A stretch of DNA of 64,000 nt, filler included, from Stramenopiles sp. TOSAG23-6 (Eukaryota): assembly GCA_900128565.1 (NCBI GenBank). It is 8 parts of 8 records of this genome, joined end to end, with 100 filler letters (N's around TTAATTAATTAA, not from the genome) between each part and the next. Parts side by side here need not be neighbours in the genome. Positions count along the whole stretch, not along the records: positions 56,489 to 64,000 come from LT636556.1; 7 more parts are not named here. The stretch is one strand, 5' to 3'. The number at the start of each line of letters is the position of its first letter. Positions within the stretch are counted from its first letter, which is position 1. A program made the position numbers and the translations under genes. Positions 1-64,000 of this stretch are shown in pieces. The notes below the pieces were generated by a model. That model was given only the letters and a program-made list of their open reading frames with translations, had not been told where the DNA came from and did no database searches.

Positions 1-27
1 GCACTGTGGGCTATAAAAACCTTAACT

Positions 28-7546: not shown

Positions 7547-7587
7547 ATTTATATGAGATTTTATCTATATTTCAAAACTAGTATACA

Positions 7588-7997
7588 TTATATTATATGA
7601 TCTGTAACTTCAAATNAAGTACTTAAACTATCCATCATGCTTATTGTTGCTTGTAGCTCAACTCTGGCTTTGCGCAACTCTTCACTTATATTGTTCTCAT
7701 CTTTTTGAAATTTTTTACTAACCTTGTTTACAATAGAATTTGTACCAATTGCTCCTTGTAAGGTTTCTTGAAGAGTCAGTTTTTGTACGCGTAATTTCAG
7801 TCTATTTCTATTACTTAATAAATTATCTAGAAGACTTATAGTAATACTACCATCTGATTTATTATTTGCATTATTTTCATTATTTTCATTGTATTGAATT
7901 TCTGATGTATTAAAATCCAATAGTTCAGATGATTTTGGTTGTGTATTAATAAAATTATTCGATGTATTGTTTATGTGGTCTGTATTATTATTATTAT
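7588..7997 (-). CDS. Hypothetical protein, 3' fragment (5' end beyond contig edge)
   Basis: Asn-rich then helical ORF running toward the contig end. Confidence 0.4.
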
Positions 7998-8097: not shown

Positions 8098-8124
8098 GCA
8101 CTGTGGGCTATAAAAACCTTAACT

Positions 8125-11100
8125 CTAATCTATGCTACTAGAACTTTCATCAAAATCATCATCATAAATTAAGCCAGGTAAAAAAAGTTTAACTTTTGAT
8201 ATTTCATCAATGGTCAAATGAATCTTTTGTATAGTGGCAACCTGAAGTTCTTTAATCGCATTCATTGTATTATGCATTTCAACCATTGCCGTATTCGTTT
8301 GTGTTTCTATTTGTTTCATAGTTTTACTTACTAAACGTATTTGTGTAATATCTACACCACTACCTATTATAATTTTATGCTTTTCAGGAATAATACTACA
8401 TTTCATGTCAAATTCCCATTTCTTTAACAAAAAATCAGATGGAAAAGTTATTTCTTGTAATTCTCTAAATATACGTTCTGCTTCTGAAAATGCAGTTCCA
8501 TCAATCATCGCTAATAATTCTGGATCTGCATTTATATATTCAGCTAATTGTCTTTCATATATGTATGGAAAATGTATTAGAACTTCATAAGACTGCCTCC
8601 ATTTTTTTAATTTACTTTTTAATTTACTTAATGAAATACGACGCGTATTTCTGTTAAGTAATAAATTTCGAATAAAAATAGCTTTACTTTTCACAAAATT
8701 GATAATTGTATGAAGAATCGTGGCTATTAGATTTCCATTCCTTATTTGTTTCATTAAGCTTTTAAGAAGCCGTTTAGAAGTTGACGATCGTATCAACGTA
8801 CCAATCTTTCCTTCATTGTAAATAAATCGGTATTTTTTCCAATTTGCAATCATATAACAAGAAATAATACAAACCAAAAAATATCTAAATACAATGATAT
8901 ACGAAATGAAATAAAGAAATAATACTGAAACTGTATTATCATTCATATTTTTTTCATCTTTCAAATGTAGAAAAATATTATTATTTAAGATGCCTAAGCT
9001 AAGATTAGAAATTGTTGCAGAAAGAGTTGAAAATCTATGCGAATTAAAAACAAAGCAAAAGTATCCAAATACAGTAAATGCTGCAAAAATTGATCCTATA
9101 GTAAACATAATTGTTATAATTTCTTTCCATGATTTGACTAAAATATGCACAAATGTCCTAAGAAAATCAGAATAGGGTGTATATTTCAATACACGGAATG
9201 TCAAAAGTAGAATAACAAATGATAATCGTAAATGTTGACGTTCAATAGCATCAAAAGCAGTTTCCATATCTTGATAATTGTTCATTGTGAAGGCTTGTCT
9301 TAGTTTTTCATCCATATTTAATGTGTGAAGATCCCAATGAAAGGCTAATTCTTGAACTACATACACGGTAATAAATACAGCTATATCATAAAAGGCAAAT
9401 ATAATTTCATAATAGAATTCTGTAGTTTGTTTTCGCCAATCGAGTATTTCTCTCCTTGACTGATATACTGTAAGTATCGACAATGTGATTAAAGGGAGCA
9501 CCAGAAAAAAACGTACAATAATATTTGAAGTATTTAAATGAAGCAATGAATCATTTGTTGGTGTCAGCCAAGCAATGTTTGCATTCCAATGAGGAACAAC
9601 TAAACCTTCAGGTCCAATTTCAAACCAAACTTTAACAAGACATAAAGCATGAGCATCATGAATGTAATAAGTGATTTTGAAAAATATTGCTCGTGTTGCT
9701 AGTCCTAAGAAGTGTTTCAAATCTCCAATTTCAGCTTTGATTTGTTCAGCGGATTTATCATACCGTAAAGTATGTAAAAATCCTGAACCATCATATGTAG
9801 CATAGAGTCCATCTGATGACATTGCATCTGTTTCTGTAGACCGGAACCAATTGTATTCACATCTATAATCTCGTGCATTACTACTTTTGTAAGTTTCATG
9901 CACAGTATGAATAAGTTTATAACATTCCAGCTGACGATGTTCCTCCTTTAAATCCTTCGATGCAATGTATCCACATGTTTCTGTGTTTTTAATATTTTTA
10001 TTATGCAAATCACAATGATTAATATCAACATAACACCACACTTGATCACAAGTTTGATCTCTAGCAGCATTTAATTCACCAGTCGTTTGGTTCAAACAAT
10101 TTGTTGAGTCTAATATATTGTAATTAAAGCACCCTTGATAACCCAATTCGTCTGACTCTTTGATAATACATTTACAAGATGGATTTTCAACATACCGACA
10201 AACACCGAAAACTTCATTTATTTTTTCACTTGCACCATTACAAACCCCACCATTTGGTGCACAATCATTTGTTGTGACACAATTTAAATCCACTGAAATA
10301 CTACACTTTCCAATGACAGGGTCTACAGCAGGTTTATATCCAATACATTGTTTTTCACTTGGTGTTAGTATATAGTGAGATCTTTTAATACAATCATTTG
10401 TAGTTCTACATCCTACAACACAAATTCCATACGTTGCACCTGTTTTTTTTATACAATTTGATAATTTATTTCTCAGTAGTCCCTGTTCTGATGTACAATC
10501 TGAATCTTTCGTACAAGAAATTTTACATACTTTATTTGTAGTTGTTGTTGCTGGATTTTCTGATACACAACTTCCGATACCACACTCGGCTGGACTAACA
10601 CACTGTGTTTTGTTAGCATTATCTGCAATTATGTCTGAATTAGTTCCTATAATATTAGTTTTCACTCGACTAATTCCTCCAAATTCTTCAAGATTGGCAA
10701 CATTATAACTATACCTAGGAAAGTTCTGATTACTTAGTCGTACTGGGCGTTTGATTGGTTTATTTCTATCATTTATTACAGTTCCAAAATAATTTTGGGT
10801 TGTTTCATCCTGAGGCATTTTTTGCACACGTACTTGACGAACTCGAACTCCCCACATTCCAATCATTCCATTTTTATTTTCTTTGTCTTCCTGCTTTTCA
10901 TTTTGGGTATGAAATAATTCTGGGACAATGATTTCTTCTACATATGCCCAAATATTAGGGATTATATCAACTTTTTCCAAGGTCAAATTTTCACTACCTT
11001 GGTGTTCCGTGGTAAAGGGAGCATATCTCAACATCTTTTCTACACGATCAATTATAAGAAATTTTTCGGCAGGACGTACAGTATCAACGATTGCAATAAT

Positions 11101-11256
11101 ACTAGAAACCAAAGCAATTACATAGAAAAGTATATCAAGTCGTCTCAAACGTAACTTTTGTGTTTTATCAAACCACTTGTCAAAGTCGTCGAGACCAATC
11201 ATTCCAACGTCTTCAAGAGAATCAACAGACTCTAACACGGAACTTTGGGTACTCAT
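8125..11256 (-). CDS. PKD2-like channel (duplicate-contig copy)
   Basis: Identical to 28-3159. Confidence 0.8.
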   Translation of the reverse strand: MSTQSSVLESVDSLEDVGMIGLDDFDKWFDKTQKLRLRRLDILFYVIALVSSIIAIVDTVRPAEKFLIIDRVEKMLRYAPFTTEHQGSENLTLEKVDIIPNIWAYVEEIIVPELFHTQNEKQEDKENKNGMIGMWGVRVRQVRVQKMPQDETTQNYFGTVINDRNKPIKRPVRLSNQNFPRYSYNVANLEEFGGISRVKTNIIGTNSDIIADNANKTQCVSPAECGIGSCVSENPATTTTNKVCKISCTKDSDCTSEQGLLRNKLSNCIKKTGATYGICVVGCRTTNDCIKRSHYILTPSEKQCIGYKPAVDPVIGKCSISVDLNCVTTNDCAPNGGVCNGASEKINEVFGVCRYVENPSCKCIIKESDELGYQGCFNYNILDSTNCLNQTTGELNAARDQTCDQVWCYVDINHCDLHNKNIKNTETCGYIASKDLKEEHRQLECYKLIHTVHETYKSSNARDYRCEYNWFRSTETDAMSSDGLYATYDGSGFLHTLRYDKSAEQIKAEIGDLKHFLGLATRAIFFKITYYIHDAHALCLVKVWFEIGPEGLVVPHWNANIAWLTPTNDSLLHLNTSNIIVRFFLVLPLITLSILTVYQSRREILDWRKQTTEFYYEIIFAFYDIAVFITVYVVQELAFHWDLHTLNMDEKLRQAFTMNNYQDMETAFDAIERQHLRLSFVILLLTFRVLKYTPYSDFLRTFVHILVKSWKEIITIMFTIGSIFAAFTVFGYFCFVFNSHRFSTLSATISNLSLGILNNNIFLHLKDEKNMNDNTVSVLFLYFISYIIVFRYFLVCIISCYMIANWKKYRFIYNEGKIGTLIRSSTSKRLLKSLMKQIRNGNLIATILHTIINFVKSKAIFIRNLLLNRNTRRISLSKLKSKLKKWRQSYEVLIHFPYIYERQLAEYINADPELLAMIDGTAFSEAERIFRELQEITFPSDFLLKKWEFDMKCSIIPEKHKIIIGSGVDITQIRLVSKTMKQIETQTNTAMVEMHNTMNAIKELQVATIQKIHLTIDEISKVKLFLPGLIYDDDFDESSSSID

Positions 11257-12691
11257 TTCAAATATAAAGCGTTTAAGATTTTTTCATACTTCAAGTGTAA
11301 GAGGAAAGTCAAATGTCAATCAATTGCAAAGTTTTAGGCTTTGAAGAAAGAAGATGAGAGAGGAGGAGGAGGAGAGGAGGAGGAGGAGAGAGTGTTGTTG
11401 TTTCAAAATTTCAAATTGAAATAATAATCTCCGCCCGGAGCGGGAAAAAAAAGATAAATTGCAAATTGGAATTATTTTGCGATTTTGTAATTTGAAATTT
11501 GAAATTTTGAATTTATTTTCTGTTTTTGACGACTAATGTCTCATTCATCAATTGGCCATACTATAATATGCTTTGAATATAACTACCTAATTGACGAATC
11601 GTGTACTATATGGAAATACTGCACACACAATGAAAAATTGAATATTAATAGAAAGAAAAAAGTTTCAATTTTATTTCTCTTTTTTCCAGTTCTATTTGAA
11701 TATCATAATATATCAACCCACTGAACATCTTTCATAAATTTTTATCGCCTTTACGAAGACAAATTGAAACGATATTGATGGATTTGTGAGTGTTTATTCC
11801 ACACACGTAACTTATTCATTTCAATTTGTGTCTCACACGTAATTTATTCACTCCAATTTGTAATCCATTTGCAAGTTTTGTAAGTTCTTCGAGTTCTGGT
11901 TCAATAATTTGTAATTGACCTTTACCAACCCTTCTAAAAACGACGTTCATTGTCGAATTAGGTCGCCTTTCTCTTTTNGAGATTTTTTTTTNGNCTTNCA
12001 NGTAAGCATGTGGGACGATGTCGTCTCCGTATTCTTCGTGGTTGACTGACATCAGCCACTGGTTGACAAGGGATACAACAAGGGATACAATGACAATTTC
12101 GCCCGAAAAAAGATGTAATACGCATCTGTTTTATGTCGCCTCTTTTATCTTGAGGNAGTNAATNTTGTGGTAGTGCAGTCCACTCGTTTGTANTATCTGG
12201 ATTTNTATCGTCAGCACCAGAGATTTCCATATCCCTTCCCTTTATTAAAGTCTCTGAAGGGGTTTCTGTTTCCATGGTCATTTGCTTGANTGAAGTATCT
12301 GCAGCATGAACAACACTAAGCGCATAACAGAATATNCAAAGCATGTACGTGAATCTATTATAAAATGTTGACATAATTGGTTTAATATTCAATGGTATAG
12401 CAGTNCTCTTGGTGTAGTTGTCGAAGTTGTCTTGTCTTGCTTTTTTTAGAGTGGTACTTTGCTGACTCTGACTAATGATAATATCAGATTCGAACCCGAA
12501 CCCTAACCCTAGTAATAATTATACGCAATCGCAATCGAGATACAAAAATAACTAGGGTTAGGGTTACTCCCGGAGATTTTCAATTTCCGTTTCGTCTTTT
12601 TATCAATTATTTACATAATACATNCCAATCTTTTTCTCATCTACATAAAAAAGCAAGTTCTTTTATTGTTTGAACATTCAACGNCATTCAA

Positions 12692-14809
12692 ATGAAAATC
12701 CAACCAGAGAGTACATCTGGTAATAGTGCAAATGCATATTTACTACAATCCAAAGTAGCCGAACATGGAGTAGTAGCTATAAAAGAAGAAAAAACTTCAT
12801 TGGAAGAGGCTCGAGAAGAGTCTGACGCTCGTTTGTTACAACAGGCAAAAGAGATGAATTCTACTAATTCTACGAATAAACAAGAACTTAAGCAAGGACC
12901 TATGGGTACTTCAACGAACGCAATGCCCAAAGGTCAATATTTTATAAATCCATATTCAGATTTTATGAAAAAATGGGACAATTTCATTATGATATTATTA
13001 TTATTTACCGCTGCTGTTACTCCTTTTGAAGTTGCTTTNATGGGTGAAACAAGAGTAGATTTATTATTTTTTGTGAATAGAATTGTTGATTTAGGTTTCA
13101 CAGTGGATATGTTTTTTCAATTTAATCTTGGATTTCCAGATCCTGAAACAAATGAAATCATTTATCATCATGGCGCAATTGCACATCGATACTTAACAAC
13201 GTGGTTTTTGATAGATTTTGTATCAATTTTACCATTTGATATTGTAGCAATGAATATTAATACAGAAGATATGGATGTATCTCAATTAAAGATTGTTCGT
13301 ACAATTCGTTTGTTGAGATTGATTAAGTTGTTGCGTGTGNTGAGGTCATCAAGAATATTAAAAAGAATTGAACATTCTTTAGGTTGGTCCTTTGTCACAT
13401 TTGCTTTAATTAAATTTGTTATTGCATTATTTGTTACGATGCATTGGGTTGCATGTATTTGGGGTATATGTCCATCAATGTCATCATCCGCATTAAATTG
13501 GTATACAGAATTTGGTATGGAATATGCAACTACAGGAGATCGTTATGCTGCTGCTGTAGAATTTGCTATGATGTCATTTGTTGTAGGATATGGATCATTT
13601 ACACCAACTACGACAGGTGAACGTGTTGTTGCTTTATTCTGTATGTTTTTATCAGGTAGTATATACGCTTATATTATTGGTGCAATATGTCAGGCAGTGT
13701 CGATGAGAGATCCAGGAACTCAAAAATTTCATCAAACTATGGATTTATTAAATATGTACATGACAGAAATCAGAATGCCACCAGATGATCGAATTCGTAT
13801 GAGAGAATTTGTACATAATTGTAAAGGTTTACAAAGACAAGAATTTTATCAAGAAGTTCTTCGAGTCTTATCACCAAAATTACAGGGTGAATTTGCAATG
13901 CGTACAACAGGTCAATGGATTGAACAAGTTCCATTTTTTTGTTGTGACGAAACAGAAGAGAGAAGGCGATTTGTAGTTGATGTTGCATTAACGTTAAGTC
14001 GTAGAGCATATACTCGTGGTGAAATTTTATTTAAGATAAATGAAACAGCAGATTTGATGTTTATAGTTGCTCAAGGTGTGATTGGTGCAAAAGGNAGTAT
14101 ACTTCGATCAGGTGATTTTGTNGGCGAAGATATGATTATGCAGANTGGTCTACGTACGTATAGAGCAACGGCAATGACATTTGTTGATACGCAAACACTT
14201 TCAAGAGATAACTTATTTAGAGTATTAGAAAGAGGTGATTTTCCTGAAACAGAAAAANTAATTCATATTGCAGCACTTCGATTAGCAATCAAAAGATACT
14301 TTAAAAAATTGGTGACTACTATACAGTCGGGTNATGCTTTCGCAAGCAAGAAAAAAATGACGGAAGAAGAAATTTCAGAGTGGAAACTTCAAATGAAAAA
14401 AAAATCATCAGAAAAGTCATTATTGGCTTCTCCACTAGGAAAAAGAAAAAAACAGAAAGAAGAAAAAACAGAAAGTGATGAAAAAGTACATGCAGATCCA
14501 ATTCGATCTTGTTTACAAGAATCAATTACAAAAGAAGTAGACTTAAATTCTTTATTACAAAAGCTTGAAAATATGTCCCGTGGAATAAAGCTTTTACAAT
14601 CTGCAGTTACAGCTACTGCACAAAATATCCATGAATTACAGTCTGATTTTAGTACACATTTAGGTATTGGAAAAGATACAAGAAATGTTGAGTCTAGAAA
14701 ATATCCAGAAATTAATGGTGATGATGAAAGTTGGAGNCCATCAACACCAAATATACAAAATATCGATATTTTGGAAGATTTGAAAGAGGGTATTTCACGT
14801 CGTATTTAA
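12692..14809 (+). CDS. CNBD K+ channel (duplicate-contig copy)
   Basis: Identical to 4595-6712. Confidence 0.9.
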   Translation: MKIQPESTSGNSANAYLLQSKVAEHGVVAIKEEKTSLEEAREESDARLLQQAKEMNSTNSTNKQELKQGPMGTSTNAMPKGQYFINPYSDFMKKWDNFIMILLLFTAAVTPFEVAXMGETRVDLLFFVNRIVDLGFTVDMFFQFNLGFPDPETNEIIYHHGAIAHRYLTTWFLIDFVSILPFDIVAMNINTEDMDVSQLKIVRTIRLLRLIKLLRVXRSSRILKRIEHSLGWSFVTFALIKFVIALFVTMHWVACIWGICPSMSSSALNWYTEFGMEYATTGDRYAAAVEFAMMSFVVGYGSFTPTTTGERVVALFCMFLSGSIYAYIIGAICQAVSMRDPGTQKFHQTMDLLNMYMTEIRMPPDDRIRMREFVHNCKGLQRQEFYQEVLRVLSPKLQGEFAMRTTGQWIEQVPFFCCDETEERRRFVVDVALTLSRRAYTRGEILFKINETADLMFIVAQGVIGAKXSILRSGDFXGEDMIMQXGLRTYRATAMTFVDTQTLSRDNLFRVLERGDFPETEKXIHIAALRLAIKRYFKKLVTTIQSGXAFASKKKMTEEEISEWKLQMKKKSSEKSLLASPLGKRKKQKEEKTESDEKVHADPIRSCLQESITKEVDLNSLLQKLENMSRGIKLLQSAVTATAQNIHELQSDFSTHLGIGKDTRNVESRKYPEINGDDESWXPSTPNIQNIDILEDLKEGISRRI

Positions 14810-15031
14810 ATGTAGTAAAAAAAAANTAAAAAAATCTTTTTTTTACTAGCATTTGCTGTTCTGTTAAACTGAATTTCGGAATTTATTTTTTAATTTATTT
14901 TTTCGGAATTTTTCCAAGATCTCTCAGATCGTCTAAAAACGAGTCTAAAAAGTATCTTTTTTTACTCGAAAAACTTTCACAAATAACATTACACATGGTT
15001 GCTATAATNTACAAGTAGTGTAGTACATTAA

Positions 15032-15643
15032 ATGGCTAGCATTTATCACGAGCATATCGCTTGGAAAAAGAAAATTTACGCCGACCGAAAGAAACGTAAA
15101 GCAAAAAAACTTCAAGAAGAGCGAGCGAAGCATCAAGAGTCTTGCACATTTAAGCCAACTATTACTGAATATAAACCTCATGTTCAACAAAAGGTAAGTA
15201 TTCCCCAGCACAAATCTTGTTTGCAACACAAATGGCGACAAGANCGGGCGCGAATACAACGAAAACAAGAGGAAGAATTGANACAGCATAGAAGTTATGC
15301 GTCAAGCCGAGGAGTTACTAAATCAAACTGGGACTCAAGTTCTTCACAAAAAAAAACTGAGAAGCTACAACAAAATTCAAATAATCATTTAAATAATAGT
15401 AAANAAAGNCATGACCTGTCAAAAAAGACNAAAAAAGAGCTACTTATGTACGCTATTACTTTAAAAAAGGATCATGAATATAAGCTGAAAGAACAAGAAC
15501 TTTTTCTCCGAGACAAATTCCAGAAAAGACTTCATGATCTTTCAGTACAATGGATGCAGAGTAAAGATAATCTTTTACAACGCATAAATAAGTTAGAAAA
15601 GTATTTTCAAGAAAGTGNAGATTATAATCAAGGCAATAAATAA
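15032..15643 (+). CDS. Hypothetical coiled-coil protein (duplicate-contig copy)
   Basis: Identical to 6935-7546. Confidence 0.55.
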   Translation: MASIYHEHIAWKKKIYADRKKRKAKKLQEERAKHQESCTFKPTITEYKPHVQQKVSIPQHKSCLQHKWRQXRARIQRKQEEELXQHRSYASSRGVTKSNWDSSSSQKKTEKLQQNSNNHLNNSKXXHDLSKKXKKELLMYAITLKKDHEYKLKEQELFLRDKFQKRLHDLSVQWMQSKDNLLQRINKLEKYFQESXDYNQGNK

Positions 15644-16094
15644 ATTTATATGAGATTTTATCTATATTTCAAAACTAGTATACATTATATTATATGATCT
15701 GTAACTTCAAATNAAGTACTTAAACTATCCATCATGCTTATTGTTGCTTGTAGCTCAACTCTGGCTTTGCGCAACTCTTCACTTATATTGTTCTCATCTT
15801 TTTGAAATTTTTTACTAACCTTGTTTACAATAGAATTTGTACCAATTGCTCCTTGTAAGGTTTCTTGAAGAGTCAGTTTTTGTACGCGTAATTTCAGTCT
15901 ATTTCTATTACTTAATAAATTATCTAGAAGACTTATAGTAATACTACCATCTGATTTATTATTTGCATTATTTTCATTATTTTCATTGTATTGAATTTCT
16001 GATGTATTAAAATCCAATAGTTCAGATGATTTTGGTTGTGTATTAATAAAATTATTCGATGTATTGTTTATGTGGTCTGTATTATTATTATTAT

Positions 16095-21288: not shown

Positions 21289-22440
21289 ATGAATGTCAAA
21301 GATGTTATTTCGTCACTTCTTTTTGTGATTATTTCATTGTTAGTTCTTATTGACACACTTGCAAAGTCAGTTGATGATGATGAATTGTTGGTCATAGATA
21401 TGGACGCTACTGCGTCCAAGAAATTGACTGAGCAACATATTCCAAATCAGCAACAAATTAAACATGAAAAGGAACCAAGTACTCCACCTCGTAATTTGAA
21501 TCAAATGTTTGGACAAAGTTTGCCTTATTTTGGTGGACCCGGTGGCCGATACTTTCCTCCTCCGCCACCACCACCACCAATGTACAATGAAGATGCGAAA
21601 AACGGTGAAATGGGAGAGATTGGAGCCCAAGCGTCTCCGTCTCAATTTGCTTCACGTTTCGTTCATGATCACTTTACTCCTCCAATACCTCCAACATCAA
21701 ATACTGAGCCAATGCTCCCAAAACATCCATCTATGTTTCATCCTCATCAACATGCGATGAAGATACATCCATCATCGGATATGTATCATGGATATTCACA
21801 AACATTTGCACAACCTGGAGTTCCTGGTGTATACGGAGAAATGAGAAATCCTAGTAGTAGTAATTCTGTCAGTTCTCAAGATGATTTGACAAAACAAAAA
21901 GATAAACAAAACCAGACACATGGAGCTCACCCCGGAATGTATCATCATAATATATATCAACCACCACCACAACAACAACAACCTCCACAAATGCCAGGAT
22001 ATAATCATAATATATATCATCAACAACCTCCACAAATGCCAGGATATCACCATCATCATAACATGTATCAACAACCTCCACAAATGCCAGGATATCATCA
22101 CCATCATGATATATATCAACAACAACCTCCACAAATGCCAGGATATCATCATCATAATATGTATCAACAACAACAAAAATATCAACCTTACCTTGGTGTT
22201 ATGCCATTAGAGCGTGATAGGGAACATATACGTTTTGTTTTTATCATTCATTTCAAAAAAATTTCAAAAAAATTTCAAAAAAAAAAAATATTTTTTTTTT
22301 ATAGTAAATTTTGTACCTAACAAATTTCATTTTTTTTATATGTTTTTCTAATATATATCAAGGCATTAAATAATCGAATTGCAGAATTACAAGAAGCTTT
22401 GACAAAAGCAGGTGGTCATGTAAACACTATGTCAAAATAG
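21289..22440 (+). CDS. Secreted/anchored Pro-Gln-His-rich repeat protein; exons 21289-22227 and 22357-22440
   Basis: N-terminal hydrophobic segment, PPQMPGYHHH repeats, and a short coiled-coil terminal exon in frame after intron removal. Confidence 0.7.
22228..22356 (+). mobile_element. Repeat-family intron, probably AT-AT (alternative GT-AT register 22232-22354)
   Basis: CAT|ATACGTTTT...TTTTGTACCTAAC...CTAATATAT|ATC. Confidence 0.65.
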
Positions 22441-44201: not shown

Positions 44202-45250
44202 ATGTCACCAATTACAGTTCGCTCCGTTGCACGTATGTTTGGAGGTTTAGTAAAGCAATGTACTCATGACTCAACGTCTACCCGCACTGCTATGAACTTT
44301 ACAGTCTTTGTTCCCCCCCAAGCAAGTGAAAGTGTTCGCGTCCCTGTTTTGTATTATTTATCAGGATTAACTTGTACAGACGCAAATGTAAATGAAAAAT
44401 CGGGTGCACAACGGTATGCAGCAGAGCATGGGATTGCATTGGTTATGCCTGATACAAGTCCTCGCGGGCACCCACCTATTGCAGGTGAAGATGATTCATA
44501 TGACTTTGGTACAGGTGCTGGATTCTATGTGAATGCTACCACTCCAAACTATGCTGATAATTATAATATGTATGATTACGTTACCACAGAACTACCTGAA
44601 CTTATACAAGCTGAATTCCCTGTATCTAAGAGTTCTTCTATATTTGGTCATAGTATGGGAGGACATGGCGCTCTAGTATGCGCTTTAAAGAACCCAGGAA
44701 TGTACGTTTTTTTTNCAATTTTTTATCTTTTTTTTTTCGTACGAAATTTCGTACCTAACGAATTTTACAAAAAAAAATTTCACAATATATGTACAAATCT
44801 GTGTCTGCTTTTTCACCCATTTGTAATCCAACTCAATGCCCGTGGGGTGAGAAAGCTTTTAATGGTTATTTAGGTTCTGTTGATGCAGGGTTATCATATG
44901 ATGCGTCTGAACTAATGAAGAGTTATAATGGTCCCGAATTGCATTTATTAATAGATCAAGGATCTGATGATCAATTCTTACATGTACGTTTTTTTAGGGT
45001 TAGGGTTTTTATATATATATATTTTTTTTTTCGTACGAAATTTTGTACCTAATAAATGTAAAATTTTTGATATATTTTTTCAAAATTTCATGATCAATTA
45101 AAACCAGAAACTTTAAAGGCATCTTGTGCAGAAGTTCAACAACCACTGAATTTGAGGATTCATGATGGTTATGATCATAGTTATTATTTTATTGCGTCGT
45201 TTATGGAGGATCATATTCAACATCATGCGAAATATTTGAATAAACAATAA
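44202..45250 (+). CDS. ESD: S-formylglutathione hydrolase (esterase D); exons 44202-44701, 44791-44983, 45092-45250
   Basis: [38 protein letters not shown] and GYDHSYYF after splicing. Confidence 0.95.
44702..44790 (+). mobile_element. Repeat-family intron, GT-AT (89 nt)
   Basis: AT|GTACGT...CACAATATAT|GTAC; no AG anywhere in the intron. Confidence 0.85.
44984..45091 (+). mobile_element. Repeat-family intron, GT-AT (108 nt)
   Basis: CAT|GTACGT...AAAATTTCAT|GAT. Confidence 0.85.
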
Positions 45251-56388: not shown

Positions 56389-56488
56389 NNNNNNNNNNNN
56401 NNNNNNNNNNNNNNNNNNNNNNNNNNNNNNNNTTAATTAATTAANNNNNNNNNNNNNNNNNNNNNNNNNNNNNNNNNNNNNNNNNNNN
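56389..56488. other. Artificial contig spacer
   Basis: N44-TTAATTAATTAA-N44. Confidence 0.98.
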
Positions 56489-59400
56489 CACATTTCGTGT
56501 CTCAGGAGTTGTATTTTCATTTCTTGTTTGAAAATATTTTTTTTAATTTTTTTGTTAGGTACAAAATTTCGTATGAAAATTTAAAATTTTCATTTCTTGT
56601 TTGAAAATATTTTTTTTAAATTTTTTTGTTAGGTACAAAATTTCGTATGAAAATTTAAAATTTTGTAATGATTAAAAATGTACATTGATTGTAGATCCTT
56701 CGGCACCTAATGCAAATGTATTGTAGAAAAATATTTCAAAAAAAAACTAAAAAAAATCGTTAGGTACAAAATTTCGTACGAAAAAAAATTCATACAAAAA
56801 AAAAATAAAACATACATATTTGATACTGCTTTTGCTTTTATACACTGATCATATTTATAACAACGAAAAGCATGGAATGCATATGCATATTGTCGTTGTG
56901 CTACGTACCATAATTTTGAATGTAAGAATTTCGCAGCTGCTTCAAGATTTCCATATTTTGTCTGCGTATTCATAGATACATTGCGAGCAGTTTTGTACCA
57001 AAAGTGTAAGGCTCGTCCTAATTTCTTCTGTATCATTCCTCTCAGGGCAACGGAGAAAAGAAGAGCAGCTATTTGACGTGTATATTCACAATTTCTATAA
57101 TCCATAGTCACCATTTGCCAAATATCAAAGGTATGTGACACAATTCTTTTATTATAATGTCTCAATCTACTGAAAATTGATTTCAAAGCGATTTTCTTTT
57201 CAATTTTTACAAGACGATTTTGTTTTGTTACCTGACACCAATGTTGATAAAAACAATAAACAGTTTTATGGAGAAGTCTATTTAAGATTTTAGGAATGAT
57301 GACAGATGAAAGTATTGTGAAAAATATTCTTTTTTTTTTTTTTAAATTTGTTAGGTACAAAATTTCGTATGAAAAAAAAATTTGAAATTCATGATGAAAA
57401 CGTACAATGTGTCGACGTTTCAAATATTCATTTTTCATTAATTCTGAACCTAATTTCCACTGTGCAAATCCTTGGCTTTTGCTTACTAGAGACATGCGAC
57501 GTACTATGAGATTCATTTTATGAATTTGTGCATTATACATGTATTTTGGGAAAATATTTTTTTTTTTTACCGAAAATAAAAAAAAAATGTTAGGTACAAA
57601 ATTTACTATGAAAAAAAAAATTCGAAATTCAATTTTGAAAACGTACAATCCCATAGATAATATCTGATCTCTCCAGACATTAAAAGCTAAACGTTTTTTA
57701 TTCAAAACTTTGCGCTGACTTAATGTCTTTATACAAGTAACAGACCAACAATATTTTAATACATGTATTTTGGAAAAATATTTCAAAAAAAAAACTAAAA
57801 AATTTGTTAGGTACAAAATTTTCAAAAAAAAAAAACTTCGATTTTTTTTTTACCGAAAAAAAAAAAAATAAAACATACATCGTGTTCTTTGTATGCATTT
57901 ATAAGTTCTGATTCATTTTCACATTTTTTCTGAACTTCTATTTTATTTTTCCATTTATACAATGAAACTTTTAATGTACAACAACGTTTTAAATATGCAG
58001 TTTGGTGAATGTTAATCAGTGTGAGGAATGTGAAATATTTCAGTGCGTTACTTTGACGAGATAATGCTACACTTAATGCGGAATTTTTTTTCTTTTCCTG
58101 TAAAACAGCAAATTTACACATTGATTTTGATTTTTCTTTACACTCTAAAAGCATTTGAGAATATTTGTTCTTTAGTTCTTCTAAGGCATTTCGTGTGTTA
58201 GCACTAGACAATTCACGTTCTTTGTGTAAAGTAACTCTCATATTACGAAGCTCAGCCCTTTGATGTTCATATGCTACAGCATATGATATAATGTAAGAAA
58301 ATATGTCAAGTTTCACATGTATGAGGTACAGAATTTTCTATGGAATTCTGAAAAATTGAGTTTGTACCAAATTTCGTACGTAACAAACATGCTGAAAACG
58401 TACATGGTGCTCCAAGTGCAATAGCTCCATTCGTTTCAATTGATAATTCTTTACTCCATAATTTCATTTTGAGAGCAATTGATTTTAATACATCTAATTC
58501 TTTACTATTTTCATCTGAATCTAAATGAACATTTGGACTATTTTCATCTGAACTTGGATGTATTGCAGAAAATATATATTTTTTTTAGTAAAACAAAAAA
58601 TCGTTAGGTACAGAATTTCGTACAAACAAAAAAATATTTGAAATGTATCATTGAAACAAACATGTATTGCAGAAAGAACAGCATTTTCTGATACTATTTT
58701 AGTATTTTTATGTATTTGATGATAAATCATATTTGTAATTTCATTTACTCTAGTCTCTAGTGAAGCTAAATGATGAATACTAGCTTCTCGTTTTGCATCA
58801 AACTTTGTCTTTTGGATAATTTGTACTACATCGTTTTGGTGTTGTTTCTCGAGTGAACGTATAGACGTCTCCTTTTCTGTAATTGCTTCAAGTTTTTCGC
58901 GTCGTCTGTTTTGTGAAAAAAATATTGTTTTTTCAATAGAACAAATTCGTTAGGTATGAAAAAAAATTTTTGAAAAAAAAAAAATTCAAAAAATTCAAAA
59001 AATTCAAAAAATTCAAAAAAAAAAAAATAAATATAAAATGAATGATGAAAACAAACAATCGACTTTCATATTCTTCCTCCAAATGTTCGCATTTTTTCAG
59101 AGATTCTTTCTTCAAATCTTGAAAAGTGACATGTAATGAATCAATTTCTTTAGAATGTTGAGACATCGTATTTTTCATACGCTCTATAGAAATAATCCTT
59201 TCTTCTTCATGCACTACGTATTTTGGAAAAATATTTCAAATTATTTTTTGTTAGGTACAAAATTTTTATAAAAAAAAAATTCATATAAAAAAAAATAAAA
59301 CATACACTTTTAAAGAAGTAACTAATTTTTCCTGTGCGTCTTTGATTCGTGTGCATTCTATTTGATGTTCCTGTACATATATTGTGAAATTTTTTTTTAA

Positions 59401-60740
59401 TCAAAAAAAAAAATTGTTAGGTACAAAATTTTTTTACAAAAAAAAAAAAAAAATATACATTTGAAATGAAGGATAAAAACGTACGATATTGGAAAATCTT
59501 TTTTCCCATTCTTCAATTTCGGCATTTTTTAACGCTTCCATTTCTTCAAATTTATTATTATATTCTGCTACTAACGCAGATCTCTCTTTATTATGAACAC
59601 TTACAAGTTTTTCTATTTTTGTATGGTGGACTTTTTCAATCTTTTCTATCTTTATAGTATATATAGTTGCATTTTTTTCTATTGTGTCTTTTAATTCATG
59701 TATTTTGGAAAAATATTTCAAAAAAAAATTGTTAGGTACAAAATTTCGTATGAAAAATAAATTCGAAATTAAAAAAAAATAAAACATGCATCTATCTCTA
59801 CACGTAGCAATTTTTCCTCGGATTCCCTCTCTGCCATTAGCTTACTCATATCAGCTGCATGCTCAAGTGATAGGAGACCCCTTAAAGTATCTTCAGCTTG
59901 TATTCTCGATTTATGTTGTTCTTCTTTTGATTTTTGATATTCCAGCTCTCGATTTTTTTCTCTAACTTTCATTTCTTGTATTTTTGCTTTCCAAGTTTTA
60001 TTAATTTCAATAATATTTTGCTCATTTTTATGTTCTTGTTGAATCAATGACTCGTTTAATTGTTTTATAGAAGATTCTAATTTAGCATTCAATCCTGGCC
60101 AATCTTTTTCTTGTATGTGTTGCATAACTTTCCGCATTTTTGCTATATCTTTTGCTTCTTGGTCAGCTAAGCGAGATAGTTCCCTTTCATGTATTGCGCT
60201 GCTTTCCTTTCTTTTCTGTCGTTCTGATATAATCTTTTCTTTATACTTTTTTATTTCATTTTGATGCTTTTTCATCACATTGTCTAATTCATTTTTTGCT
60301 TCTCTACGTAATTCTATTCGTAGATCTGTTAAAGACTCTTTGGTTGCTTCTATTTCACAAGCATATTCTTCGGAAGCAGCCTCCCTCAATGCTTTAGCGG
60401 TAGAAACTTGGCTTTTAAGTTCTAATTCTTTTTTCGATAATTCTTCACATCTTCTCTTAGAAGTGTTTAATTTTTTTTGTATATCTAAATGAAAATATTC
60501 CGTGTGCTCCAAGCCCTCCAAAATTTTAGCGTTGTGGGCGTATTTCATTTCTATTTCCTTTTGATAATTACATTCTTGCTCTAGCAGAGCATGTTTTTCT
60601 TCTGCGTCTCTAACTGCAGATATATCTAAATGAGTAGTATCTAAATGAGAATTATCCATTGCAAAATCGCCTACATGTGAGGAAAATGTAGAGGTTTCCA
60701 CAGATGGAACTTTCGATGTGTCTACGTGTGAGGGAATCAT
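56489..60740 (-). CDS. Large coiled-coil protein with Sfi1-like W repeats; 11 family introns, 3' truncated
   Basis: Exons 60740-59790, 59697-59485, 59376-59306, 59215-59057, 58905-58662, 58557-58404, 58285-57879, 57762-57647, 57538-57406 and 57309-56816 keep phase through nine consecutive junctions; the last two junctions are ambiguous. Confidence 0.75.
56519..56683 (-). mobile_element. Repeat-family intron with internal ~73-bp tandem duplication
   Basis: AT|GTACAT; branch motif and acceptor region present twice; acceptor placement uncertain. Confidence 0.6.
56716..56815 (-). mobile_element. Repeat-family intron, GT-AT (alternative AT donor at 56819)
   Basis: AT|GTATGT...ACAATACAT|TT. Confidence 0.7.
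57310..57405 (-). mobile_element. Repeat-family intron, GT-TT (96 nt)
   Basis: ATT|GTACGT...CACAATACTT|TCA. Confidence 0.7.
57539..57646 (-). mobile_element. Repeat-family intron, GT-AT (108 nt)
   Basis: TT|GTACGT...AAAATACAT|G. Confidence 0.78.
57763..57878 (-). mobile_element. Repeat-family intron, GT-AT (116 nt)
   Basis: GAT|GTATGT...AAAATACAT|GTA; joins two ORFs. Confidence 0.8.
58286..58403 (-). mobile_element. Divergent family intron, GT-AT (118 nt)
   Basis: AT|GTACGT...GTACCTCAT...ATTATAT|CA; frame restored. Confidence 0.7.
58558..58661 (-). mobile_element. Repeat-family intron, GT-AT (104 nt)
   Basis: CAT|GTTTGT...GCAATACAT|CCA. Confidence 0.78.
58906..59056 (-). mobile_element. 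Repeat-family intron, GT-AG (151 nt)
   Basis: TT|GTTTGT...CATACCTAAC...CACAAAACAG|A. Confidence 0.78.
59216..59305 (-). mobile_element. Repeat-family intron, GT-GT (90 nt)
   Basis: GT|GTATGT...AAAATACGT|AGTG; using the adjacent AG gives a stop. Confidence 0.72.
59377..59484 (-). mobile_element. Repeat-family intron, GT-AT (108 nt)
   Basis: ATC|GTACGT...CACAATATAT|GTA. Confidence 0.78.
59698..59789 (-). mobile_element. Repeat-family intron, GC-AT (92 nt)
   Basis: GAT|GCATGTTTT...AAAATACAT|GAA. Confidence 0.75.
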
Positions 60741-60969
60741 TATTCTACAATAATATCAGAGAGGATCAGAGAGAGAGAGTGTTAAAACTTTTTCAAATTT
60801 TGATGGGAAAAAACTAAATTTGAAATTGAATTTTTTTTAAAATCCATCGGCCATGCGTTAAATTCAAATTGCTATTTATGAACTGTATTTAATTACTACG
60901 GTAGTATTTGTGTAATTGTGTTCTTTCAAAGCAAACATAAACGCAAACATAAACACATAATATACGACA

Positions 60970-61569
60970 ATGATAAACTTTCAAAAGCTACTTACTATAT
61001 CACTGGCATTCACTTTTGAAAGTGGATTAGCAGTAATCCCTTTTGAAAGCCTTGATGGAGCAACCCCGGAGGAACAACTGTTGACGCTAGAAGCGGAAAT
61101 AAGAAGTCTGAGACTGCAATTGACCCCGGAGAAAAAACACAAAGCGACTGTACATGCAAGAACAACACAGAATGAGTTGGCACTGGAAACTGGATTTGTT
61201 AATTCGAATAAGAAAGGTGTTTCGACTGCACCGACAAAAAGAGTAACATTCAGTCGTGAAACAAAGCAACAAGAAGAAGTCAAAAAGCCGCCGACGGCGA
61301 GAACAGAAAAGATGAAAGGATCTACGGGATTAAGGCTCGCGGGAGCAGAAGATAGATATGGAAATTTTCACATCCATGGAGGAAATTTTTTCCATGACCA
61401 TGTAAACACTTATTTGGCAGAGAAAGCTGCTAAAGGGCGCGGGGAGCCAACGGAGTTGGAGAAGATAAGAACGCTCATTGAAAACCTGGAGAACATGCAG
61501 ACACGAAAGCTCTTTGAAGACTTGAGGAAGAAAGCACATACGGTCGGATTGCGCAAAATCCTGCAATAA
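60970..61569 (+). CDS. Secreted hypothetical protein
   Basis: 199-aa ORF with a signal-peptide-like start. Confidence 0.6.
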   Translation: MINFQKLLTISLAFTFESGLAVIPFESLDGATPEEQLLTLEAEIRSLRLQLTPEKKHKATVHARTTQNELALETGFVNSNKKGVSTAPTKRVTFSRETKQQEEVKKPPTARTEKMKGSTGLRLAGAEDRYGNFHIHGGNFFHDHVNTYLAEKAAKGRGEPTELEKIRTLIENLENMQTRKLFEDLRKKAHTVGLRKILQ

Positions 61570-61730
61570 TAGAGTCATACGTCTTTATATTTTTATTCAT
61601 CATGTGATATATTGAACATAGCGTTTCAAAATTCATAGTTGCTTCTTTTATTATAGAATGTTTCTTTGAAAAAAAAAAGAATAAAAAAAAGTTCAAATTA
61701 TCTTTTATAGTCTGATACCACGTAAACATA

Positions 61731-62753
61731 TCATCCAATACGAGTTGCGCTAATATCTAAGTTAGGTGCACCTGGAGCCTTCATTGCTGTTTCTAGCAAT
61801 GTCTTTGTCTTAATTTCGTCACTACTTGGCAAACCCTTAGCCTTTTGAGATTGGTCAAACATTATTTTCCGTATGGCTGCTTGAGTTTCTGAGTTATACG
61901 TCTCAAGTTTTTGGGTCGAATCAACTTTCGTACAGTCAATTTCTTGATGGCCTTTTAAAACACTTTTCCACCAAGTAGAAACTTTTTTATCTAAAGTTAG
62001 AGTTATGATTCGTTCACTTGTTTGGAAAATGGAATCTTCAATTTGCCATAAGCATTCAGAAGGTCGCACTGCCATATCAAAGACTCCATCCAAAAGACGA
62101 ACATTCGATGATTCTGAATTATCTAGTCTAATACAAATCTTATCTGTAGAAAATGCACAATTGATGTCCTTACTTTTTGTTCCAAAAGGCACAGGAATGT
62201 TCACAGTGACGTCATCGAGAGTTTGAGTCCACCAATAGTTAGATGTAATTCCTCCATTGCCGATAGGAATTTGTTTGCCATCATCTGTATACTTTATAGA
62301 GGGTACAACCGATTTCTGACATGACACAAAAGACTTGCACTGATTTGCTTTTGTGGATTCTAAGGAGAAATCAGCATTACTCAAACTAGAGACGTCCTGT
62401 ATTGGTCGTTTTAACTGAGCTGCTTTTTCTTTTTTCACACTTGATGGAGTTACTTGCCTCGACGTTTCTATTTTTTTTACATTTTTTTCGACGGAAGAGA
62501 TACCTTTATGTGATATAGGAGATGCATCAGGATGTGGTTTCAAATGCAATTTACGGAAAGAACGAAGGAGAAGAGACTCTGCAACACCTGGCGGAAAACC
62601 CATGTTTGCACCTCCAGGTGGTTGAACTACGTAGAAGTCTGTCCGACGATGCAAGAAACTGAAAAATGTCTCAAGTAGTGGTTCAATACCTCCTTGCTGT
62701 TGTGCTATTCCTAGAAGTACATCATCATACCGTCCGTCACTGGGATCTGGCAT
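61731..62753 (-). CDS. NudC family protein (NudC-N plus CS domain)
   Basis: LLETFFSFLHRRTDFY, NYWWTQTL, WWKSVLKG and AIRKIMFDQ.QK..GLPSSDE. Confidence 0.9.
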   Translation of the reverse strand: MPDPSDGRYDDVLLGIAQQQGGIEPLLETFFSFLHRRTDFYVVQPPGGANMGFPPGVAESLLLRSFRKLHLKPHPDASPISHKGISSVEKNVKKIETSRQVTPSSVKKEKAAQLKRPIQDVSSLSNADFSLESTKANQCKSFVSCQKSVVPSIKYTDDGKQIPIGNGGITSNYWWTQTLDDVTVNIPVPFGTKSKDINCAFSTDKICIRLDNSESSNVRLLDGVFDMAVRPSECLWQIEDSIFQTSERIITLTLDKKVSTWWKSVLKGHQEIDCTKVDSTQKLETYNSETQAAIRKIMFDQSQKAKGLPSSDEIKTKTLLETAMKAPGAPNLDISATRIG

Positions 62754-62996
62754 TTTACAAAAATATAAATTTGATTCAATCTCAAATAACCAACTTGTAT
62801 AGTACGATGAATGAAACAAAAAAATATACTGTCAAATTCATGACACGTGGCGGTGGCGTGCAGTCAAAATTTATCAAAATTTGACGGACTACAGCTGCTA
62901 CTTACTGTGTATGTTTACAGTATGGCATATATGCATAAGATTATCCAATGAAAAATTAGAAATTAAGAATCTGATACTCATTGAATAATTATAATC

Positions 62997-63906
62997 ATGA
63001 CTCCATCTCAGATGCGAGCAATAGCTTCGTTAGACTCTACCTTTGAAAAATCTAGTAAAGAATCAAAAAAGAGGAACCAACCCAGTAGTTCGAAGCGCAG
63101 TGACTCAGGAAAGAAGAAACGTCGCCGTAATACAGCTGCTAATAGTAAAAGATCTAGTGGCACTTCAAATAGTCCACACAAAGATCAACACCATGACCAC
63201 GACATATCTCATGTACAATCCACGGGAGAACTCTCAAATGATAGTAAAATAAAACAGGTAGAATATCTGAGTGATAGTGAGTATGCCGCGGCATCTACAT
63301 ACGTAAATAAATTTTTAGAAACAACCCTAAGTAGCATAGATAAACCTGGAATGCGACCTGGAGACGTAATTAAATCAAAGCTACAGAATAAATTAGTGTT
63401 ATTAGATAATAAAGAGAAGGATGTATCTCTAAGTAAAATGCTTAATATGAATCAAAAAACTGGAGGTGTTGAGATGCGTAATGTTGGTCTACATGGCGAA
63501 GGTGTAAAAGGAGATGGCAGACCTCTGTGGGGTTGTACGAAACGCAATAGTATTTTTCTACAGATGTTTCAAAGTGAAAAAAAATACGATTCTCAAGAAT
63601 CTGCCACTGGAAGATGCAATCAAAACATTAAACACTATGAGAATTTGCATCGCATATGTATGTTTTATTTTTTTTTAATTTCGAATTTATTTTTTCGTAC
63701 GAAATTTTGTACCTAAGGAATTTTTTTTTCAAATATTTTTCCAAAATACATGGATACAGTATGCTAGTGACCTTTACAATATAGTGAGTGGCAAAAAACA
63801 CGAAAGGGGAAAAGCAACCCAAAAAGAACGAAAACCATGGACAAAAGTAGAGAAAGAGGAAATAAGTGCAGCACTTGCTGAAGCATTTCTTTCTGCCGAC
63901 TTGCAT
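62997..63906 (+). CDS. POP4: RNase P/MRP subunit POP4 (Rpp29); exons 62997-63657 and 63752-63906, continues beyond window
   Basis: Splicing gives LHRIWIQYASDL, followed by LSADLH at the next donor, matching the Rpp29 LH..W.QY and ADLHG motifs. Confidence 0.75.
63658..63751 (+). mobile_element. Repeat-family intron, GT-AT (94 nt)
   Basis: AT|GTATGT...AAAATACAT|GG; creates the conserved Trp codon. Confidence 0.83.
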
Positions 63907-64000
63907 GTATGTTTTATTTTTTTTTCAATTTTGAATTTATTTTTCGTACGAAATTTTGTACCTAACAAATTTTAGTTTTTTTTTTTTTGAAATATTTTTC
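63907..64000 (+). mobile_element. Repeat-family intron, cut by window end
   Basis: CAT|GTATGTTTT...GTACCTAAC...GAAATATTTTTC. Confidence 0.78.

Follow-up and report, generated by a model that had tools for sequence, protein, structure and literature searches.

The gene studied here lies on the minus strand of the window, i.e., the whole 64,000-nt stretch of DNA that was analyzed, and belongs to an uncultured marine protist. It starts with an ATG at 60740-60738 and is interrupted by 11 copies of one element family (56489-60740), which we infer to be introner-type spliceosomal introns that the major spliceosome would remove at the RNA level. An introner is understood as a short, non-autonomous, transposon-like element that would become a spliceosomal intron upon sense insertion into a gene, and judging from the sequence, the 11 inserts are probably independent copies of one such family, each acting as an intron wherever it landed in sense orientation. 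Few signals of eukaryotic gene expression are as conserved as the AG at the 3' end of introns, and to our knowledge the large-scale exceptions (Fritillaria, Amoebophrya, and euglenids) all alter the 5' end as well or need RNA structure. In the present elements, 5' site and branch motif have textbook form, and the 3' end alone departs, tracking the insertion site. If true, this would isolate 3' splice-site choice as a single altered step, and it would show that a transposon can generate harmless introns with no need to encounter or contain an AG. Gene finders for which AG is mandatory will fragment every gene with these elements.

Gene structure and predicted introns

The features of the gene and its predicted introns are as follows:

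56489..60740, minus strand: protein-coding gene with 12 exons, the last one partial (spliced frame free of stops; in-frame stop just 5' of the ATG)
59790..60740, minus strand: exon 1, 951 nt, 34% GC
59789-59698, minus strand: intron 1, 92 nt, phase 0, GC..AT, with the same mRNA as AT..AC, TG..CA, or CA..TG (open frame)
59484-59377, minus strand: intron 2, 108 nt, phase 0, GT..AT, exon side TC (open frame)
59305-59216, minus strand: intron 3, 90 nt, phase 2, GT..GT, equivalent to GT..AC as the exon also ends in GT (open frame)
59056-58906, minus strand: intron 4, 151 nt, phase 2, GT..AG, no sliding ambiguity (open frame)
58661-58558, minus strand: intron 5, 104 nt, phase 0, GT..AT (open frame)
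58399-58291, minus strand: intron 6, 109 nt, GT..AT, element 58403-58291 (open frame after a 4-nt boundary shift)
57878-57763, minus strand: intron 7, 116 nt, phase 0, GT..AT, equivalent to AT..AC (open frame)
57646-57539, minus strand: intron 8, 108 nt, phase 2, GT..AT, stop-free in frame (open frame)
57405-57310, minus strand: intron 9, 96 nt, phase 0, GT..TT, equivalent to TT..AC as the exon also ends in TT, stop-free in frame
56815-56716, minus strand: intron 10, 100 nt, phase 2, GT..AT, equivalent to AT..AC (open frame)
56683-56509, minus strand: intron 11, 175 nt, GT..AA at the family register (putative acceptor)
56389..56488, no strand: N44-TTAATTAATTAA-N44 linker joining assembly pieces, not biological sequence

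Removal of the 11 units (90-175 nt, 18% GC) joins exons of 26-41% GC (together ~32% GC) into 1001 codons without a single stop, whereas the two remaining frames of the 2983 exon bases contain 97 and 86 stops. The 3' end of the gene is missing at the contig end and N-linker at 56489. An earlier note on this DNA had counted 11 copies in one gene, and 11 were indeed found; the intervals that it gave for four of them (59698-59789, 59216-59305, 58906-59056, and 57310-57405) proved exact in coordinates and dinucleotides. Its claim that phases match across nine junctions likewise held: with family-consensus boundaries, nine of the ten testable junctions keep the frame, and only intron 6 needs the 4-nt shift. 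This intron is the most degenerate copy and has lost its CTAAC; the family-consensus pair 58403-58291 breaks the frame there, and by reading of the sequence, the alternative 58403-58295 (GT..TT) is also in frame. Two further copies carry internal repeats: the degenerate intron 4 (core ATACCTAAC) contains a tandem repeat, and in intron 11 the core is tandemly duplicated over 74 nt. The putative acceptor of intron 11 is followed by a mere 20 nt of exon 12 before the contig end. With ten checkable junctions and ~3.1 kb genomic compared to ~2.1 kb spliced, the gene is the compact test locus it had been described as. Two brute-force enumerations of boundaries yielded hundreds of in-frame pairs per intron, including pairs 3 nt apart. 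A continuous ORF is not sufficient to fix the boundaries, and we tested the family-consensus register instead.

All 11 copies start with GT or GC. Their 3' ends are AT in seven copies and GT, TT, AG, and AA in the others, and the exon bases preceding the introns are AT, TC, TT, GT, or AC. Ten introns carry CTAAC, with 34-51 nt between the branch A and the 3' end. No AG follows CTAAC in introns 1, 2, 3, 5, and 8, and the sole AG of intron 4 is its terminal one, while AGs are skipped after the branch A in introns 7 (at +11), 9 (at +21), 10 (at +12), and 11 (at +31). Alternatives that use an AG break the frame in this gene, which also applies to the AG located 2 nt inside the exon following intron 3. 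Altogether, only intron 4 among the 11 gene copies and two of the 25 copies of the window end in AG, which places the family outside the canonical GT-AG/GC-AG class. The earlier note had regarded the odd boundaries as real. In favor of this, the units are needed for the open frame and the AG alternatives fail; the series of variants is partly labeling, as set out below, and the evidence is internal only.

The predicted product is an orphan protein of the coiled-coil type, in which exons 7-10 encode a repeat region that contains tryptophan. Pfam returned nothing above noise for four exons of the gene, a word-indexed protein search with a 380-codon read-through ORF returned no match among proteins of 209-665 aa, and a full HMMER search against 1.84 billion representatives returned none at E<=0.001. 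Likewise, a PDB sequence search with exon 10 gave no match at E<=10, the ESM Atlas gave only unnamed clusters, with recognition below a useful level, and a comparison of exon 1 with metagenome contigs gave 112 matched patterns and no confirmed one. As the coiled-coil gene has no homologue, its junctions are not checkable against a conserved protein.

Conserved genes of the window provided controls. The S-formylglutathione hydrolase gene contains two GT..AT units at 44702-44790 (89 nt) and 44984-45091 (108 nt), the predicted removal of which is precise. The resulting protein aligns to 10 homologues (chosen from 120 listed), is gap-free at junction 1, and has the same length at junction 2 as its closest relatives among those listed, P0002 and P0003. 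In the gene for a DEAD-box helicase, the copy at 40964-40848 splits the Pfam CTE_SPB4 domain, and removal is again precise, with profile positions 1-26 before the copy and 25-52 after it. The frame is thus restored at ten junctions in the coiled-coil gene, two in the hydrolase, and one in the helicase domain. As a separate observation, the best hydrolase match listed was 80% identical, which suggests that the word-indexed collection lacks the proteins of the host organism itself.

Boundary register and repeated dinucleotide

The last two bases of the exon equal the last two bases of the intron in 14 of 25 copies (permutation p = 0.004). Exon side AT was found in 12 of the 25, 11 of which also end in AT, and a match is likewise present in three of the six copies with non-AT ends (GT/GT, TT/TT, AG/AG; p = 0.005). 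The matching dinucleotides look like a target-site duplication, and the ends in GT and TT seem to have been copied from the insertion site and not to be mutated acceptors. The repeat is imperfect in the remaining 11 copies, eight of which have AT on the intron side and a variable exon side; these copies fit an AT that belongs to the element equally well as a true target-site duplication. Inverted ends comprise at most GTAT..ATAC and are found in one subfamily only, which is weak for a DNA transposon.

The repeat also bears on where the cuts are placed. Since the exon and intron dinucleotides are identical at introns 1, 3, 5, 7, 9, and 10, GT..NN and NN..AC boundaries give the same mRNA at these six junctions, and several of the "boundary variants" are therefore register labels. 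The earlier note had described a series of such variants in one gene; the dinucleotides are present, but GC-AT, GT-GT, and GT-TT yield the same mRNA as AT-AC, GT-AC, and TT-AC. The ambiguity is largest at intron 5, where the final 14 nt of exon 5 equal the final 14 nt of the intron, resulting in 15 equivalent registers. Intron 2 slides rightward only, up to GT..AC at +4, and for intron 8, with exon side TT, the NN..AC register would yield a different mRNA. In total, the two registers predict different junction bases at introns 2, 4, 6, 8, and 11.

The cuts could lie two bases upstream on both sides, so that the intron comprises NN plus an element ending in AC. Most units would then be AT..AC introns, and the GT, TT, and AT "acceptor variants" would instead be variable 5' ends. 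We consider this unlikely, although several observations agree with it: it is indistinguishable from GT-first boundaries at the six junctions named above (slide of at least 2), AC precedes the final two bases in 15 of 21 aligned copies, and intron 11 becomes AT..AC instead of an odd GT..AA. In addition, AC is among the 3' ends accepted in a curated introner survey (PMC12130899). The AT-AC pair occurs in U12-type and in rare U2-type introns, and the 12 copies with exon side AT would read AT..AC. The remaining copies would start with TC, TT, GT, AC, or AG, whereas GT-first boundaries have a 5' GT in 23 of 25 copies (24 of 25 with GC included), with A[T/C]GT immediately after it, and a 3' AT in 19 of 25. 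U12-type introns are marked by an ATATCC 5' box, and their branch site lies a short distance from the 3' end. The elements contain neither this box nor the U12-type 5' site (ATATCCTT), their 5' dinucleotide in this register is variable, and CTAAC at 34-51 nt from the 3' end is far beyond the U12-type branch distance. Furthermore, moving the cuts would turn intron 4 from a canonical GT..AG into a TT..AC intron and would leave intron 6 out of frame at the family consensus. Taken together, we favor GT-first boundaries, with a duplication that presumably arose at insertion.

Element family and proposed mechanism

The core GTTAGGTACAAAATTT has 38 matches in the window at up to three mismatches, compared to 2.3 expected; the last gene copy has it in duplicate. 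Elements follow the pattern 5' G[T/C]A[T/C]GT with an internal CTAAC, and an alignment of 21 copies revealed that 5' G.ATGTTTT, the core, and the 3' end are invariant or near-invariant. Similarity spans the family from boundary to boundary and does not extend into the exons. The host genes are unrelated, comprising the coiled-coil orphan, the S-formylglutathione hydrolase, the DEAD-box helicase, and genes with SET, Casc1_N, and GYF domains. The earlier note had called the neighboring genes intron-free, which applies to NudC (61734-62831, minus strand), which is uninterrupted, but not to the gene from 62985 (plus strand), which has two copies. A flank-ORF score, which compares how open the flanking frames are on the two strands, puts 30 of 32 copies in sense orientation to the host gene; the other two are partial copies located where a contig or the window ends, and both adjoin long same-strand ORFs. 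Neither an autonomous element nor an intergenic or antisense full-length copy was found within the window.

For nine of ten gene copies, the nearest relative lies outside the gene, and internal duplication was rejected on these grounds as the source of the gene's copies. Elements are seven times as dense in the gene as in the remainder of the window, and the mean pairwise identity of the gene's copies is 0.50, compared to 0.63 elsewhere in the window. An exact search with the 19-nt core in environmental DNA returned three loci, all unrelated chance matches. Three seawater metatranscriptome runs from one study contained only 0.06-0.10 of the sampled words, which the repeated intron core alone could explain.

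We propose that each copy would supply its own 5' splice site (GTATGT or GTACGT, with GC in intron 1), a branch site within the conserved core (TACGAAATTTTGTACCTAAC), and a conserved T-rich 3' end (...ATATTTTTC[C/A]A[A/C]AATAC). From the RNA, the element would be removed together with two further bases, AT in most copies, which tend to match the exon dinucleotide just ahead of the element, as expected from a 2-bp target-site duplication. Because of this tendency, we suggest that the end of the element itself determines the 3' cut, which would fall two bases past ...AATAC and depend neither on a search for AG nor on a fixed distance from the branch site. More tentatively, the spliceosome might ignore the last two intron bases and make a ruler-type second-step cut two bases past ...AAUAC. 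If so, any 2-bp target duplication would be acceptable, so that a DNA transposon could become a clean intron anywhere in coding sequence without an AG, and the gene would represent a natural allelic series (AT, GT, TT, AG, and AA) within one transcript.

Pairing of intron ends that brings the splice sites together has been proposed for Amoebophrya introners and for euglenid nonconventional introns, and RNA structure of this kind could set the 3' cut here, possibly without normal 3' splice-site recognition. In three of six folded introns, the minimum-energy fold indeed pairs 5' GUAU with AUAC and leaves exactly two unpaired 3' bases. We nevertheless regard structure as a very unlikely determinant: the helix is only 4 bp long, it is absent in the GTACG subfamily (introns 8 and 9), where position 4 changed from T to C without a compensating 3' change, and five of six introns fold no better than shuffles (z of -0.7 to +0.3, and -2.4 for the other one).

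It is less probable still that the elements are removed from DNA, as is the case for ciliate internal eliminated sequences, and that the assembly is a germline-like version. The elements are short, AT-rich, and precisely delimited within coding sequence, with a flanking repeated dinucleotide and short inverted ends, all of which would suit such a process. Ciliate internal eliminated sequences are excised independently of orientation and are bounded by TA, whereas the orientation here is strictly tied to the gene strand and the boundary repeat is AT, GT, TT, or AG. Moreover, every well-preserved copy has a classical 5' splice site and CTAAC, neither of which DNA excision needs, the standard genetic code gives ORFs of up to 1728 codons, and the window contains no element-free version of any locus. 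Finally, we give almost no credence to a decaying gene with transposon insertions that were never removed, since decay, though suggested by an orphan without relatives, the high element density, and the more diverged copies, would neither keep the exons free of stops nor put nine of ten junctions in frame.

Comparison with known introners and non-canonical introns

Introner elements are known from Micromonas pusilla (IE1), Aureococcus, Chrysochromulina, Symbiodinium, and others (Gozashti et al. 2022, PMC9860276; PMC11282704). The present elements share with them the occurrence as many near-identical short introns in unrelated genes, a GC content below that of the exons, short direct repeats at the boundaries, and an insertion that, once spliced, leaves the mRNA length unchanged. 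The arrangement proposed here corresponds to that described for Chrysochromulina, where the 5' splice site is part of the element and the duplicated target provides the 3' boundary (PMC9860276). In the introner families described there, the co-opted 3' end is AG (GY..AG) and repeats comprise 3-9 bp, whereas in the present family 19 of 25 copies end in AT and the others in GT, TT, AA, or AG, the repeat comprises 2 bp, and inverted ends are minimal. No paper on GT-AT introners was found, and judged by title and the start of the abstract, none of the papers listed for GT-AT or non-canonical protist introns describes such a family. Published introner surveys start from annotated introns and drop unfamiliar ends that lack RNA support (PMC12130899), so that a family like the present one would be missed.

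Fritillaria borealis, a tunicate, has non-canonical MITE-derived introns that are demonstrably processed by an adapted U2-type spliceosome (Henriet et al. 2019, via PMC11282704; also PMC13326754). As is proposed for the present elements, these introns are described as transposon-derived and species-specific, with a non-AG 3' end from the duplicated target (PMC11282704). In the same account, they are mostly AG..AC or AG..AT after an exonic TAC, in contrast to the GT or GC starts found here, where textbook GTATGT or GTACGT and CTAAC are retained, the 3' end alone is unconventional, and the host is a protist and not an animal.

The introners of Amoebophrya (Farhat et al. 2021, PMC7789003) come from a marine protist as well and resemble the present family in direct repeats that overlap the boundaries, ambiguous cuts, and non-AG ends. 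Their inverted repeats of 8-20 nt fold into a hairpin by which the ends are joined, their direct repeats measure 3-5 nt, their terminal dinucleotides are not consistent, and U1 is apparently lacking in this organism (PMC7789003). The family described here differs from them by a constant GT start, a dominant AT end, a repeat of mostly 2 nt, and end pairing of at most 4 bp without a significant hairpin.

Reading frame of the coiled-coil gene

The gene under study encodes a coiled-coil protein on the minus strand of the last piece of the window (56489-64000), and an in-frame stop precedes its ATG at 60740. It carries eleven element copies between 56509 and 59789, numbered I1 to I11 from 5' to 3' on the transcript, whose boundaries were set from the family register and then checked against the reading frames. 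Copies referred to by position are the following:

59789-59698, minus: I1, GC-AT
59305-59216, minus: I3, GT-GT
59056-58906, minus: copy with GT-AG boundaries
58403-58291, minus: I6
57405-57310, minus: I9, GT-TT
56683-56509, minus: I11

Joined in silico, the exons yield 1001 codons with no stop; the two remaining frames of the same 2983 exon bases contain 97 and 86 stops. GC content is 18% in the introns versus 26-41% in the exons. The four intervals that the earlier note had listed with their dinucleotides (I1, I3, I9, and the GT-AG copy) proved exact; it had also seen phases matching across nine junctions. With boundaries placed at the family consensus, nine of the ten junctions open to testing keep the frame. 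The exception is I6, the most degenerate copy, which has lost the CTAAC motif and is out of frame at 58403/58291; its frame needs a GT four bases further in (58399) or an acceptor four bases earlier (58295, read from sequence). The I11 junction lies outside these ten, with only 20 nt of exon between its acceptor and the contig end and the gene lacking its 3' end. I11 further contains an internal 74-nt duplication, located at the assembly edge.

Several local features were observed on the minus strand. Exon 5 and intron 5 share their final 14 nt (58662-58675 and 58558-58571, respectively), so that the coding sequence of exon 5 finishes with what resembles an element's 3' end; this may be left over from a second element or reflect duplication of a boundary. 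I8 (108 nt) and I9 (96 nt), within 56707-57849, have lengths divisible by three and contain no in-frame stop; their retention would add an in-frame peptide without truncation, and a misleading ORF of 380 codons results. Exons 7-10 (56816-58290), the C-terminal third of the protein, encode a repeat of ~35-40 residues, each unit ending in a hydrophobic residue, two further residues, tryptophan, and a basic residue. We take this repeat to resemble the centrin-binding repeats of Sfi1, a reading that received no support from Pfam, PDB, or the Atlas. No relatives of the gene were found: protein searches returned 0 hits, and metagenome contigs, PDB, and the ESM Atlas yielded nothing.

The element family in the window and in conserved genes

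The window consists of eight pieces of ~8 kb each rather than one contiguous sequence, joined by N44-TTAATTAATTAA-N44 linkers at 8042, 16139, 24231, 32312, 40355, 48397, and 56433. Its DNA is eukaryotic and AT-rich (27-43% GC), with ORFs of up to 1728 codons in the standard code, and the domains it encodes are ordinary eukaryotic ones (NudC, polycystin channel, DEAD-box helicase, UCH, PPR, and ribosomal L27A). Pieces 1-7997 and 8098-16094 are the same DNA (one mismatch in 7997 positions, identical pattern of scattered Ns), so that per-window counts overstate unique sequence by 8 kb. Piece ends fall inside family copies at 16195, 32267/32368, 40310/40411, 48453, and 56489. Evidently, the assembler broke the assembly at the intron-family repeat, and the coiled-coil gene thereby lost its 3' end inside or just after intron 11.

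The 16-nt core of the insert has 38 matches in the window at ≤3 mismatches, against 2.3 expected. On the transcript strand, the insert begins with G[T/C]A[T/C]GTTTT and a T-rich stretch, continues with TACGAAATTTTGTACCTAAC and T/A runs, and ends in ATATTTTTC[C/A]A[A/C]AATAC plus two more bases. Orientation was assessed for 32 copies, comprising 11 in the coiled-coil gene, 14 complete copies elsewhere, and seven cut by contig ends. The element's own strand has the better flanking open frames in 30 of them, and the two exceptions are end-truncated copies adjoining long same-strand ORFs. A plus-strand copy at 22228-22358 starts with ATACGT, compared to GTACGT in the others, and lies in a gene whose open frames are long on both sides. 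At 23500-23545 (minus), right after a conserved glycosyltransferase-1 motif, a short stretch starts with GTACGAAATTT, which is the family's palindromic core as seen from the opposite side, and ends in AACAT ~40 nt on. The stretch is a possible relative of the family, in miniature or truncated form.

As the coiled-coil gene lacks relatives, conserved genes elsewhere in the window served to test the family, with the following three copies:

44702-44790, plus: GT..AT copy of 89 nt, S-formylglutathione hydrolase gene (44178 onwards)
44984-45091, plus: GT..AT copy of 108 nt, same gene
40964-40848, minus: copy in the DEAD-box helicase gene

Both hydrolase copies lie at the family register. After their removal, the protein was aligned to 10 homologues selected from 120 listed. 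Junction 1 falls within a conserved block and shows no gap against the 10 aligned homologues, and at junction 2 the protein agrees in length with the closest relatives among the matches listed, the best of which is 80% identical. The helicase copy splits the Pfam domain CTE_SPB4, with profile positions 1-26 before and 25-52 after it. The feature is real and its coordinates are correct; judged from sequence, it is best read as a family of introner-type introns with 3' ends other than AG. The sense-only distribution, the classical 5' site, and the CTAAC motif favour spliceosomal removal at the RNA level over DNA excision. The coiled-coil gene, which the earlier note called a compact test locus, is well suited as a single-gene test. 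Separately, internal occurrences of two telomere-like repeat units (TTAGGGTTAGGG / CCCTAACCCTAA) lie at 44994, within the second hydrolase copy, and also at 17126, 22489, and 25364.

Boundary dinucleotides and the 3' cut

Both ends are visible in 25 copies, of which 19 have introns ending in AT, two in TT, two in AG, one in GT, and one in AA. Four of the six non-AT ends lie in the coiled-coil gene, in which boundary variants are thus concentrated. In 14 of 25 copies (permutation p = 0.004), the intron closes with the same dinucleotide as the exon before it, and this includes three of the six non-AT ends (I3, GT/GT; I9, TT/TT; 20049-19940, AG/AG; p = 0.005). A target-site duplication of 2 bp would leave such a pattern. 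The element proper would then run from GT to AC, and removal would take out the element together with one duplication copy. Given this pattern, GT and TT ends probably arose at insertion and not via mutation of AT. However, 11 of the 25 pairs are imperfect, contrary to a simple duplication model. Eight of these have AT on the intron side and TC, TT, GT, or AC on the exon side; AT is either part of the element or kept by selection.

The series of boundary variants described in the earlier note holds as regards its dinucleotides. It is partly a choice of label, because registers slide by at least two bases at I1, I3, I5, I7, I9, and I10, and GC-AT, GT-GT, and GT-TT give the same mRNA as AT-AC, GT-AC, and TT-AC, respectively. 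An AC-last register (NN..AC), cutting two bases upstream on both sides, finds AC at the 3' end in 15 of 21 copies and AT at the 5' end in only 12 of 25. We favour the GT-first register (GT..NN), under which 24 of 25 copies start with GT or GC and 19 of 25 end in AT. The two registers predict differing junction sequences at I2, I4, I6, I8, and I11. What the locus adds is that non-AT ends covary with the end of the exon, together with this junction-by-junction list of register-deciding introns.

The constant at the 3' cut is the element's own 3' end. No AG follows CTAAC in I1, I2, I3, I5, and I8, and the sole one in I4 is the terminal AG. AGs are skipped at +11 (I7), +21 (I9), +12 (I10), and +31 (I11) from the branch A, and an AG two bases into the exon after I3 would break the frame. 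Distances between branch and intron end range from 34 to 51 nt, which excludes a ruler of fixed length measured from the branch. Folding of six introns gave no support for a structure-defined cut: five were no stabler than shuffles (z -0.7 to +0.3) and one reached z = -2.4. A 4-bp GUAU/AUAC end helix occurs in three of the six and is absent in the GTACG subfamily, without compensating change.

Copy density, origin, and relation to known introns

Copy density is 2.6 per kb in the coiled-coil gene versus 0.36 per kb elsewhere in the window, i.e., 11 copies against 2.15 expected (Poisson p = 1.6e-5), an expectation slightly too low because the first piece of the window is duplicated. Internal duplication as the source is contradicted by the nearest relatives, which lie outside the gene for nine of ten copies, and by the greater divergence of its copies (mean identity 0.50, versus 0.63 among the others). 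For these two reasons, the copies are better interpreted as independent insertions accumulated over time. By inference, a coiled-coil coding sequence that is AT-rich and under weak constraint could plausibly act as a sink for insertions.

According to PMC12130899, curated surveys accept only AG or AC as 3' ends, and others if RNA-supported. No description of a GT-AT introner family such as this one was found by title or abstract start among the papers listed; supplementary family tables could list a similar element. Introners of Amoebophrya carry long inverted repeats, and their ends are not fixed (PMC7789003); introns of Fritillaria are MITE-derived and non-AG, but start with AG and follow an exonic TAC (PMC11282704). 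Introners with a 5' site of their own and a 3' site taken over from a target duplication have been described, e.g., for Chrysochromulina (PMC9860276 and PMC11282704); these have AG ends and repeats of 3-9 bp, whereas the present family has mostly AT ends and, in 14 of 25 copies, a 2-bp repeat.
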